Source of the DNA: Anaerolineae bacterium
Lineage (GTDB): Bacteria > Chloroflexota > Anaerolineae > B4-G1 > SLSP01
Assembly (NCBI GenBank): GCA_021159805.1
Contig: JAGHDT010000370.1
Coordinates: 1-28,917, forward strand
Reading direction: 5' to 3'
Length of the DNA stretch: 28,917 nucleotides
Positions 8,334 through 14,095 of the stretch are shown here, in pieces (position 1 is the stretch's first letter; every line of letters starts with the position of its first letter). The notes beneath the pieces were generated by a model. The model had not been told where the DNA came from. It did not search any database and saw nothing but the letters and a program-made list of their open reading frames with translations. The position numbers and the translations under genes were made by a program.

Positions 8334-10607
8334 GTGACTGAGATGCTCTACTTCAATGGTGTTAACGGAGAGACGGGGCACTACGGACTCCAGCCGATGT
8401 CGGCGGAGGCGTTAGTTGACCACGTCCTCAAAGATCGCTATAGTGCAACCCGGCAGCTCCAGGATCTGCAGCGTGAGCTCATTGACCGCACCCTCAACGA
8501 ACAGAAAGTTCTGGACATTGTGGCTTCTCTAGTTCAGGACGTGCTCCGTTCTCCGTCCCAATTCCCCGACACGACCGCTGATTGGCCCAACAGAGCGGCG
8601 CGCAAGATACTGGCGATTCTCCTTGGCGATGATGGGAGTCCGTTTGTTGAAGACGTGCAGGCTTTGGCTGCTCGCCTCGCGCAGAAGCCGGTAGAGACGG
8701 TGGTGCATATCGTGCGATTGCTCAACGGTGGTCAGGGGATTTTCCTGGCTCAATGGTTGTTCCGTCGCGATGACCTGTTGCCTGATCATCTCCGTGGAAA
8801 TCTCACGTCGCGGTTTGATCAAGCGCTACATATGATCCGGCGGACGTACTTGATGGGTGACGGCGTGGTCGTCAGGGATGCAGACCGGCGACTGCGTCTG
8901 GCATGGATTGAGGGAGTTACCAGCTCACTGGACCGGTTGCCGGTTGCGTCGCTGCAAGTGGTGCCCGGCACGGATGGGGTGGTTGGCCCGCTGCGTAGAT
9001 TGGTGCGTACACTTCGCGGACTGTCGCGGGGATGGGACGCCACGACGTCAGACGCCGCGGCCCCTGATGCCCTGGCTTCGGATACCGGAGACTTCAGGCA
9101 ACGGCTGGCTGCTTTGTCGTCGCTGGGCGCCAGTGCTTCGTGGCACGGTGTTGTGGCGAATCTTCGTGGCGTCTTGCTTTCCCTGCGGCGAGATTCACCG
9201 CCGATTGGTGTGGATGAGATTCAGGCGGCACTGCGGGACTGGCTGGATGAGCTGCAGCGCCGTGCCACCGGTCAGCTGGGAACTGTGCCCTGGGTGGACG
9301 CCGGGGATCTCTCCGAAGCCGGTTGGGGTATCGTATTTCCTGCCATATGGCCAACCTCCCGCCAGGAAGCGATTGAGGTAGCGCTGGCGCCATTGCTGAA
9401 GCTGCGGGCCGGGCAGGCTGGGGAACTCTACCGGGTCTATGCGGGGGCTAAAGGGTACCGGCCCGGAGACACGGTCAGAGGCTTTCTGCACCGTCCACCA
9501 CGCCATGCTGATGCTGCCAATCCGGCTGCTCCGGACGAGACGGGTGTCCCTTACTATCTCCTCCTGGTGGGAGGTCCCGAGGAGATTCCTTTCGAGTTTC
9601 AGTATCAGCTGGATGTCCAGTATGCTGTGGGACGCCTGGACTTTGGTGAAGATATCGCGGCCTATGCCAATTACTCTCGGAACGTGGTAGCATCGGAGGC
9701 AGCGCCGGCGCGTGCGCATCCCCAGGTGGTGCTCTTTGGGACGGAGAATCCGGGTGATGTCGCTACGTCTCTGTCGGCCAACCATCTGATCGCGCCGTTG
9801 TACCGGCACATCCGGTCCAGGATCGCTGGGTCTGCCTGGCAAGTGTTGAGCGTTGCGCCGGCGCACGCCACCAAGGCCAATCTGGCGCGCATTCTGCGTC
9901 TGAAGACGCCGCCGGCACTGCTCTTCACAGCGACGCATGGTATGGAGTTTCCGGTTGGGGATCACCGGCAGCGGCTTGACCAGGGAGCTCTCCTATGTCA
10001 GGATTGGACAGGCGAGGCCGGGGAAGTATCGTCGGACGCCTATTTTTCCGCCAGTGATGTGACCGATGACCTCAACCTACGCGGTATGATCTGGTTTGCT
10101 TTTGCGTGCTTCGGCGCCGGTACGCCTCACTATGATGAATACCACCGTTCCGCATTTAGGGCGTCGTCGCAGGCCATCGCGGAGGTACCTTTTGTCGCGG
10201 CTCTTCCTAAGGCGATGCTGGCGCTACGGGATCGTGGGGCGCTGGCCGTGGTGGGGCACGTCGAGAGAAGCTGGGGGCTCTCTTTTCTCTCTGAGATGCC
10301 GAATCGTCCGGTGGGCATGGTGGGGCGAAAACGCGAGCATATCGAGGTCTTTGCGGCGGCGATTGAGCACTTGCTGGCGGGGCAGCCGGTTGGTGCTGCC
10401 CTGGACTGTTTCGATATGCGGCACGCGGCGATCGCGACCGAGCTGGCCTATCTCTACGACCATATGCGAGATCCGCCCACGGTTGAGGATATCTATCGGC
10501 TGGCTGAGCTCTGGACCGCAAATAACGATGCGCGCGGCTACATTATTATCGGCGATCCTGCTGTACGTCTTGCAGGCGCCACGCTTCAGGAGCGGGGGGA
10601 AAGCTGA
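8334..10607 (+). CDS. Uncharacterised clan-CD cysteine protease (C25/gingipain-like caspase fold) with ~290-aa helical N-terminal insertion; protease 1
   Basis: YYLLLVGGPEEIP, AVGRLDF, LLFTATHG (His535), FAFACFGAG (Cys592), AVVGHVERSW, YIIIGDPAVRL, matching the C25-type motif order (LLVG..IP / VGR / HG / AC / GDP). No signal peptide visible. Confidence 0.75.
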   Translation: MTEMLYFNGVNGETGHYGLQPMSAEALVDHVLKDRYSATRQLQDLQRELIDRTLNEQKVLDIVASLVQDVLRSPSQFPDTTADWPNRAARKILAILLGDDGSPFVEDVQALAARLAQKPVETVVHIVRLLNGGQGIFLAQWLFRRDDLLPDHLRGNLTSRFDQALHMIRRTYLMGDGVVVRDADRRLRLAWIEGVTSSLDRLPVASLQVVPGTDGVVGPLRRLVRTLRGLSRGWDATTSDAAAPDALASDTGDFRQRLAALSSLGASASWHGVVANLRGVLLSLRRDSPPIGVDEIQAALRDWLDELQRRATGQLGTVPWVDAGDLSEAGWGIVFPAIWPTSRQEAIEVALAPLLKLRAGQAGELYRVYAGAKGYRPGDTVRGFLHRPPRHADAANPAAPDETGVPYYLLLVGGPEEIPFEFQYQLDVQYAVGRLDFGEDIAAYANYSRNVVASEAAPARAHPQVVLFGTENPGDVATSLSANHLIAPLYRHIRSRIAGSAWQVLSVAPAHATKANLARILRLKTPPALLFTATHGMEFPVGDHRQRLDQGALLCQDWTGEAGEVSSDAYFSASDVTDDLNLRGMIWFAFACFGAGTPHYDEYHRSAFRASSQAIAEVPFVAALPKAMLALRDRGALAVVGHVERSWGLSFLSEMPNRPVGMVGRKREHIEVFAAAIEHLLAGQPVGAALDCFDMRHAAIATELAYLYDHMRDPPTVEDIYRLAELWTANNDARGYIIIGDPAVRLAGATLQERGES

Positions 10608-10706
10608 TCTTGCAGGATCTTCACCAGCGGGAACCCTTTGGGTTCCATAAGCTTGTTATGCCTGTAGCGTGGCTGATCTTCAGCCCTGGGAGAAAGGAGT
10701 CTGGCT

Positions 10707-13621: not shown

Positions 13622-13702
13622 GGACCGGGAGATCCCCTCGATTGCGCGCGGTTCGGCGCCTAGGGTTGACGAGTGAATTATCCTGTATGGGAGGAGAATG
13701 AG

Positions 13703-14095
13703 ATGGCTGAGAGCGATCTGAGGCTGGCGATTGAGAAGTTTGCGAAAGACCTGGCTGCGAAGGCAGAGTCCTTCGTCGAAGATATTAGCACCCTGGAGGT
13801 GCGCACCTTTACCACACCGAGTGCGGAGATCGCCACACTGGCCGGGGGTGAGTTGGACTTGGCTGATCCGACGTTAGCGCGACAGTTGCAGCTGCGGGCT
13901 TATACGAAGATCGACTTCGACTGTGACACGACGATCTGCTTGCCGGTAGACAACAATGACCAGGTGGATCGCTCCGTGTGGGATATGCATCAGACGATGG
14001 TTATGCAGGCTTTGAAGACCCGGGAGAGTATGCTGAAGTCGATGGGGACTGCCTTGACCTCCGCTCTGGACGCGCTTCAGCGTGTGGCCGGCTAG
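13703..14095 (+). CDS. Small hypothetical protein (ORF4, 130 aa) consisting only of the shared domain
   Basis: GGGAGGAG RBS before ATG 13703. EDISTLEVRTFTT...LRAYTKIDFDCD...VDRSVWDMHQTMV...R parallels the protease 2 C-terminus. Confidence 0.85.
   Translation: MAESDLRLAIEKFAKDLAAKAESFVEDISTLEVRTFTTPSAEIATLAGGELDLADPTLARQLQLRAYTKIDFDCDTTICLPVDNNDQVDRSVWDMHQTMVMQALKTRESMLKSMGTALTSALDALQRVAG

Follow-up and report, generated by a model that had tools for sequence, protein, structure and literature searches.

A vertically inherited, sensor-less cassette of predicted gingipain-fold proteases and X-domain partners in a filamentous Chloroflexota bacterium

We analysed a stretch of 28,917 nucleotides (here called the window; positions 1-28,917 of contig JAGHDT010000370.1, GCA_021159805.1) from a metagenome-assembled genome (MAG) of the Anaerolineae, the host being a filamentous Chloroflexota bacterium. 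Four open reading frames (ORFs) on the plus strand, spanning 8334-14095, form a cassette that encodes two predicted gingipain-fold (C25) cysteine proteases, both with catalytic His and Cys in place (ORF1 and ORF2), and two small partner proteins (ORF3 and ORF4). The tail of ORF2 and the whole of ORF4 consist of an undescribed domain of ~115 residues, which we call X and which probably also makes up the C-terminal half of ORF3. The cassette represents a sensor-less form, in working order and passed on vertically, of a Chloroflexota-wide system, and this wider, receptor-linked protease system is probably of the cell-death or immune kind. Cytoplasmic gingipain-fold proteases constitute a very large family in which almost all members are called "hypothetical", and the window locus represents a compact, four-gene, sensor-free version of such a protease system. 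Compared with its STAND-linked relatives, it shows how a receptor-gated protease system can lose its receptor yet persist for long, which is relevant to the way in which multicellular bacteria come to have immune or death modules as fixed cellular machinery. An original prediction, made from the letters of the window, had described the locus as a self-contained protease module of signalling, defence or programmed death; its observations were largely confirmed and its interpretation was partly supported.

Two paralogous proteases of the gingipain fold

ORF1 (8334-10607, 757 aa) and ORF2 (10707-12812, 701 aa) are paralogous (43% identity over 457 aligned aa) and have the N-terminal motif FNG-x-N-x-x-TG-x-Y in common, which in ORF1 lies within residues 1-50. 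Between this motif and the protease domain (residues ~304-746), ORF1 holds ~250 residues more than ORF2. This helical insert (residues ~52-303) is Leu/Arg-rich and the least conserved part of ORF1, and a search of it against the PDB returned nothing; an X domain is absent from ORF1. ORF2 comprises a protease part (residues 1-530, 10707-12296) with the N-terminal motif, a short helical hairpin and a two-subdomain protease domain, followed by a disordered linker (residues 531-577, 12297-12437) and the X domain (residues 578-701, 12438-12812 including the stop codon). The HG...AC pair with identical 57-residue spacing that had been read from both proteins was found as described: His535 (codon 9936-9938) and Cys592 (10107-10109) of ORF1, and His326 (11682-11684) and Cys383 (11853-11855) of ORF2, all on the plus strand, lie within aligned THG...FACxGAG motifs. 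H326, G327 and C383 were unchanged across 72 ORF2-type sequences, as were the catalytic His and Cys in 30 of 30 ORF1-type sequences.

The AlphaFold2 model of ORF2, built from the 72 sequences, had a mean predicted local distance difference test score (pLDDT) of 85 and a predicted template modelling score (pTM) of 0.75. An exhaustive VIA-align structure search of this model against 48,161 chains placed the gingipains RgpB (4ief_B, Z 22.8) and Kgp (4rbm_A, Z 21.1) on top, with alignments covering 300-324 residues within model residues 93-530. Csx29 (Z 13.6), separase (13.4), the CHAT protein DdvA (12.2) and SAVED-CHAT (11.3) followed, and metacaspases, MALT1, legumain and caspases scored Z 7-10. 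The modelled fold of ORF2 is of the two-subdomain gingipain (C25) type, clearly ahead of other clan-CD families, in agreement with the caspase-type, C25-like fold that had been predicted. A Foldseek search against the PDB, which listed no gingipain, had ranked separase and Craspase nearest; this ranking was overturned by the exhaustive search. When the matches listed by Foldseek were examined again, the Craspase CHAT protease had Z 15.2 and separase Z 14.1. At the sequence level, the Pfam family Peptidase_C25 (PF01364) matched ORF1 at E 0.0049 and 16.6 bits, under the cut-off of 23, and Pfam gave no match to the ORF2 protease. NCBIfam, PADLOC and PHROGs matched none of the four proteins, and the expectation that the system would be unlisted in PADLOC was thus correct. 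The closest ESM Atlas clusters to the protease carry the name C25 family cysteine peptidase.

With the gingipains RgpB and Kgp (MEROPS C25, clan CD) the window proteases share the two-subdomain catalytic fold and the catalytic order, His then Cys; their relatives pass PF01364, whereas the window proteins themselves stay below its cut-off. Several features set them apart. The His-to-Cys spacing is 57 residues, compared with ~33 in gingipains, and the window proteins add the N-terminal FNG-x-N motif as well as either the C-terminal X domain or the N-terminal helical insert. Unlike gingipains, they lack a signal peptide, propeptide, Ig-like domain and type IX secretion system (T9SS) tail. In ORF1-4 no 19-residue window reached a Kyte-Doolittle value of 1.6, the N termini were not signal-like, and neither Por_Secre_tail (T9SS) nor Propeptide_C25 was found with Pfam, which upholds the earlier observation that signal peptides and T9SS tails are lacking. 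Judged by these features, the products of ORF1 and ORF2 are cytoplasmic, and they are not gingipains in the usual sense.

An X domain in ORF2 and ORF4, and probably in ORF3

The ORF2 tail and ORF4 (13703-14095, 130 aa) are homologous, with 32% identity at E 2e-16, and ORF4 is a stand-alone X domain. In the model, the ORF2 tail (~577-697) runs through a helix, a strand, a helix, two strands and a long helix, and we treat X as an alpha-beta3-alpha domain of apparently YbaB-like topology. The linker that connects it to the protease (residues 531-577) is rich in Ala, Pro, Glu and Val and has a pLDDT below 50. Among 75 relatives, the distance from the GDP-x motif of the protease to the X domain, linker included, ranged from 60 to 177 residues, and a moderately conserved [FY]-G-L motif (frequencies 0.66, 0.74 and 0.64) marks the start of the domain. 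ORF4 is acidic, with an isoelectric point of 4.5, and of the four genes it is the best conserved.

ORF3 (12812-13621, 269 aa) begins with a DPLGIW motif, continues with a helical bundle and carries an unchanging C-terminal VPGGQ-LL-PAVY-x-VR motif. Its model (pLDDT 77) contains at residues 142-234 (13235-13513, plus strand) a helix, three strands and a long helix in the same sequence as X, the probable X-like core. BLASTP of ORF3 against ORF4 and against ORF2 gave no match. A first hhalign comparison of ORF4 with ORF3 had reached a probability of 96.8%; this was an artefact of a single protein, P0396, and the signal became weak after its removal. In P0396, a database protein, an ORF3 homologue's C-terminal end runs on into the beginning of an ORF4 homologue, probably through a frameshift or an error of gene calling.

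Comparison with structures pointed to a possible likeness of X to the YbaB/EbfC nucleoid-associated proteins, with which it appears to share the order of helix, three-stranded sheet and long helix. Escherichia coli YbaB (1pug_A) matched the ORF2 X domain at Z 5.1 over 88 of 94 residues (model residues 588-696), and residues 142-247 of ORF3 matched the YbaB-family chains HP0035 (3f42_B, Z 3.7) and 1pug_A (Z 3.6), so that in both proteins the match spans nearly the whole YbaB chain. In contrast to YbaB, X has an extra helix, is acidic and is without sequence relation: the PF02575 profile found a single canonical YbaB per genome and no X domain, and hhalign of X to YbaB was not significant (E 0.13 and 0.062). 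Sequence kinship of X with canonical YbaB was thereby ruled out.

The original prediction had called both small genes unrecognisable. As far as databases are concerned this held, as ORF3 and ORF4 matched nothing in Pfam, NCBIfam, PADLOC or PHROGs, ESM Atlas look-ups with both returned only sub-threshold, unrelated clusters, an Atlas shape search with ORF3 gave nothing above a template modelling score of 0.32 by query length, and an ORF4 profile found nothing among PDB sequences. It did not hold for ORF4, which is homologous to the ORF2 tail and probably to half of ORF3. Two other identities of ORF3 were rejected. Its best 19-residue hydropathy window scored 1.48, under the usual 1.6 for a membrane hairpin, and neither Foldseek nor the exhaustive VIA search matched its model to a gasdermin, nor was there a Pfam match. 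Searches of ORF1-4 found no domain recognisable as an effector, be it nuclease, TIR, SIR2 or pore former.

Relatives linked to STAND receptors and CHAT-SIR2 proteins

A full HMMER search with ORF1 yielded 3,267 clusters (50% identity), 466-1843 aa long and with almost all members named "hypothetical". Of 39 long relatives, 32 matched PF01364 at E up to 0.001, and their additional domains included Endonuclease_NS (6), nSTAND1 (4), Trypsin_2 (4), CHAT (2), SIR2 (1) and TIR (1), besides a subtilase and several lipase-like hydrolases. Scanning one genome per species recovered 435 relatives, and the following locus counts refer to the best 79 loci; many of these contigs are cut, which affects the counts for ORF3 and ORF4. 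The protease joined to X was encoded in 75 of the 79 loci, with an adjoining ORF3 in 67 and ORF4 in 57. This trio of protease+X, ORF3 and ORF4 recurs across the Chloroflexota. At least 32 of the 79 loci place beside it an nSTAND1-WD40 NTPase of ~1,200 residues, mostly directly upstream and co-directional, and 21 have a CHAT protein nearby, usually CHAT-SIR2. Partners of immune type, in keeping with the defence reading of the original prediction, occur both as fusions to relatives of the protease domain (nucleases, TIR, SIR2, trypsin, CHAT, STAND) and as neighbours of the trio. The CHAT-SIR2 neighbour weakly matched a ThsA-type SIR2 in PADLOC-DB v2, where the trio itself gave nothing beyond a chance-level PbeC match on the protease (E 0.0088).

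The linked STAND protein starts directly with its NTPase, and a single strong transmembrane helix lies between the NTPase and the WD40 repeats. Because one hydrophobic helix separates the two parts, the WD40 propellers would lie outside the cytoplasm. This helix has 19-residue Kyte-Doolittle values of 2.2-2.6 at about residues 437-505 (L099:2276-5917; also L092, L075, L051, L064 and L108).

Some related loci departed from the common layout. In L061-L068 (e.g., L062:8902-9679) two tandem ORF4-type genes follow ORF3, the second much more diverged, and at L085:3742-7998 an ORF of 1,418 residues combines a pair of gingipain-fold protease domains with an X domain at its C terminus, an ORF1-type/ORF2-type fusion. 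Trio loci L080, L084, L094, L082 and L100 were located in bins labelled Desulfobacteraceae, Desulfatirhabdium or cyanobacterium; either horizontal transfer or wrong binning of Chloroflexota contigs could account for this. The window's own genome encodes, on a different contig of 3.1 kb (C503, 2-1603; locus L145), a CHAT protein that shares 50% identity with the CHAT half of trio-linked CHAT-SIR2 proteins; it has no SIR2 and is located next to a YjeF_N gene.

These loci resemble STAND-linked protease systems of multicellular bacteria such as EACC1-caspase and nSTAND1 (Kaur et al. 2020 and 2021, PMC7159879 and PMC8195603). In those systems a constant caspase-type protease is combined with a variable effector-position domain, while adaptor domains are repeated on neighbouring genes (PMC7159879); EACC1, from actinobacteria, is a membrane protein with one helix (PMC7159879), and nSTAND1 was defined in predicted counter-invader systems (Kaur et al. 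2021, PMC8195603). The Chloroflexota loci likewise show a constant protease and a variable domain in the effector position, carry one small domain again on adjacent genes, following the principle of effector-associated domains (EADs), have nSTAND1 NTPase and CHAT/SIR2 neighbours and occur in filamentous bacteria. In contrast, the window itself is without the NTPase, and the repeated domain here is C-terminal, alpha+beta and no named EAD. The words C25 and gingipain are absent from both papers, and our literature search found no paper on the trio or on partners of cytoplasmic gingipain-fold proteases.

A second parallel concerns the protease cascades of type III CRISPR systems, in which SAVED-CHAT activates PCaspase and, in Craspase, Csx29 cuts Csx30. 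By analogy, the Chloroflexota system would pair a sensor-activated clan-CD protease with a dedicated partner encoded next to it; the full Chloroflexota version likewise holds two different clan-CD proteases, and both Csx29 and SAVED-CHAT are among its structural relatives (Z 13.6 and 11.3, as above). Unlike those cascades, the window system has no CRISPR or cyclic-nucleotide sensor, and ORF3 and ORF4 are not related to Csx30 or Csx31.

Loss of the receptor and fixation in the genus

In a tree of the protease cores, ORF1-type and ORF2-type sequences separate with a support of 98, and therefore each half can root the other. The window's group forms in both halves a well-supported clade nested among STAND-linked members. 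This nesting in sensor-linked lineages makes the window cassette a sensor-less derivative rather than the self-contained module that had been proposed. The simplest reading of the sequences would be an ancestor with STAND, protease+X, ORF3 and ORF4, often accompanied by CHAT-SIR2, then a duplication that yielded ORF1 in one branch, and finally loss of STAND in the window's genus. Among 41 close relatives, STAND occurred in exactly the three neighbouring-family genomes that have the trio and lack ORF1. In the 21 other genomes of the genus the linked STAND was not found, one weak unrelated match aside; the window contained no STAND NTPase and its own genome no nSTAND1 above the cut-off.

Gene order ORF1-ORF2-ORF3-ORF4 was kept in 21 of 21 other genomes of the genus, and the trio is found in other Chloroflexota, in keeping with the predicted conservation of the neighbourhood. 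Across the genus, identity to the window proteins was 70-78% for ORF4, 58-72% for ORF2, 44-60% for ORF1 and 39-48% for ORF3, compared with 58-86% for flanking housekeeping proteins. Measured against two unsaturated relatives, the ratio of nonsynonymous to synonymous substitution rates (dN/dS) was 0.06-0.08 for ORF4, 0.09-0.14 for ORF2, 0.14-0.18 for ORF1 and 0.24-0.28 for ORF3, the fastest-evolving of the four; all four genes are under purifying selection. The window cassette is flanked by infB, nusA and a glgX-type isoamylase gene on the minus strand and by an aromatic amino acid operon with tyrS on the plus strand. Ten larger stretches were fetched for comparison of the site, eight of them from the window's genus, and seven of these eight have nusA, with glgX present or absent, on one side of the cassette and the aromatic operon on the other. 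In the window, no genes of mobile elements or of defence were found. Inheritance is vertical, at a fixed site and not in a defence island, the co-location that the original prediction had proposed to look for. In a sample of 301 genomes of the phylum, 19 encoded the protease, 18 X and 16 both; one family accounted for most of them (17 of 18) and they were rare elsewhere, the system being present in 6 of 172 genera.

A proteolytic switch and its alternatives

For the function of the cassette we favour, with about even confidence, a switch that works by regulated proteolysis, descends from a cell-death or immune system and has X-domain partners as its targets. The original prediction had put forward a possible initiator/executioner order of the proteases, with action on ORF3 and ORF4; this order, the cleavage and a defence phenotype are all putative. 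X domains would pair with one another and so keep ORF3 and ORF4 bound to ORF2. After its activation the protease would cut the ORF2 tether, ORF3 or ORF4, and the cut would release or remodel an X-domain complex that carries the output. Ancestrally, activation may have proceeded through oligomerisation of the STAND receptor, by analogy with the logic by which the apoptosome acts on caspases and SAVED-CHAT on PCaspase. In the window's genus it would come from ORF1, of which the variable helical insert is the sole candidate input part. Because of the company that the protease family keeps, the output would most likely be growth arrest or cell death.

A bolder version, quite unlikely in our estimate, takes the X trio for a new protease-released signalling or death complex: a membrane-spanning WD40-STAND receptor would read an outside signal and fire a cascade from CHAT to the gingipain-fold protease, and in this genus ORF1 would have replaced the receptor, its fast-evolving insert being a new intracellular sensor. 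If true, the cascade would be a bacterial counterpart of the path from receptor through apoptosome to caspase, and the ORF1 insert would make the protease core autonomous.

Several points weigh against the proposed switch. The fixed housekeeping site, the genus-wide presence and the strong purifying selection look more like a core cellular function than like genes in an arms race. The cassette has neither a sensor nor a recognisable toxic effector, and its X domains are acidic and bear no enzymatic or pore-forming signature. The similarity between ORF4 (63-122) and ORF3 (173-228) in hhalign is weak (E 0.0024, probability 12%), and the YbaB-type matches to X reach only Z 3.6-5.1. The history was read from a FastTree phylogeny with midpoint root. 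Finally, the MAG is 84% complete, and a sensor may be encoded elsewhere in this one genome.

The alternative that we take most seriously, unlikely as we judge it, is that the cassette has ceased to serve immunity or death in this genus: it could be a domesticated housekeeping or developmental protease module that processes or turns over specific cytoplasmic proteins, for example during filament growth, stress or differentiation, with the X proteins as adaptors or regulators. Such a module would agree with the presence of the cassette in every genome of the genus examined and its place between nusA and the aromatic operon in most of the genus stretches fetched, with the missing STAND, with the lack of mobile-element and defence genes in the window and with ORF4 evolving as slowly as the neighbouring housekeeping genes. 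However, the family at large, like the ancestral locus, is bound up with STAND, CHAT-SIR2, nuclease and TIR partners, evolution is fast in ORF3 and in the insert of ORF1, and a general cellular need would not produce so patchy an occurrence (6 of 172 genera).

X domains might also act in the manner of securin on separase, ORF4, ORF3 and the ORF2 tail serving as stoichiometric pseudo-substrates, steric inhibitors or chaperones that would hold both proteases inactive and the true substrates being unrelated cellular proteins. The coexistence of a tethered and a free X suggests competition for one site, the very strong conservation of ORF4 is as expected for a tight partner, the structural relatives separase and CHAT proteases are controlled in that way, and the tail-less ORF1 could be served by ORF4 in trans. 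We nevertheless consider this improbable, given that ORF4 is retained in lineages without ORF1, that nothing puts the X domain at the active site and that it has no known inhibitor-like motif.

Least probable of all is a cassette that is not functionally sensor-less and instead works with a STAND sensor or CHAT effector encoded elsewhere, as the incompleteness of the MAG (633 contigs) and the CHAT protein on the other contig might suggest; the own genome lacks nSTAND1 above the cut-off, none of the 21 genus genomes, several of which are >95% complete, yielded a STAND of the linked clade, and the CHAT protein lacks SIR2 and stands beside the unrelated YjeF_N gene.

Gene calls and neighbouring features

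All four genes of the proposed switch point in the same direction, as had been described (8334-10607, 10707-12812, 12812-13621 and 13673/13703-14095). The intergenic gaps between ORF1 and ORF2, ORF2 and ORF3, and ORF3 and ORF4 are 99, -1 and 81 nt. The reported TGATG, in which the ORF2 stop overlaps the ORF3 start, was found at 12810-12814 (plus strand), and the same junction is overlapping or abutting in most related loci. Shine-Dalgarno-like sites precede the ATG of ORF2 (AAGGAG, 10694-10699) and the ATG of ORF4 at 13703 (GGAGGAG, 13690-13696), both on the plus strand. For ORF4, this ATG is most likely the true start rather than the alternative GTG at 13673, because of the GGAGGAG site upstream and because the resulting 130 aa equal the length of ORF4 relatives. 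Short gaps and the kept gene order suggest co-transcription of the four genes. A promoter is presumed in the 318 nt between the divergent glgX (minus strand) and ORF1 (8016-8333); a consensus scan of this region identified no sigma-70-like site, the nearest match falling within ORF1, and the single promoter of the original prediction was not confirmed.

Downstream of the cassette, a promoter-like sequence at 14341-14368 (matching at 10 of 12 positions) precedes a strong terminator-like hairpin with T run at 14543-14574, just 5' of a chorismate mutase gene. This layout (14341-14574) would suit a leader or attenuator of the aromatic amino acid operon, a long co-directional operon at 14577-25510 that has tyrS (20178-21461) in its middle and includes a fused shikimate kinase/3-dehydroquinate synthase gene at 23415-25001. 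On the other side, the NusA homologue (3515-5608, minus strand, 697 aa) contains a C-terminal segment, residues 476-534, that matches the RNA polymerase alpha C-terminal domain family at E 7.8e-07.

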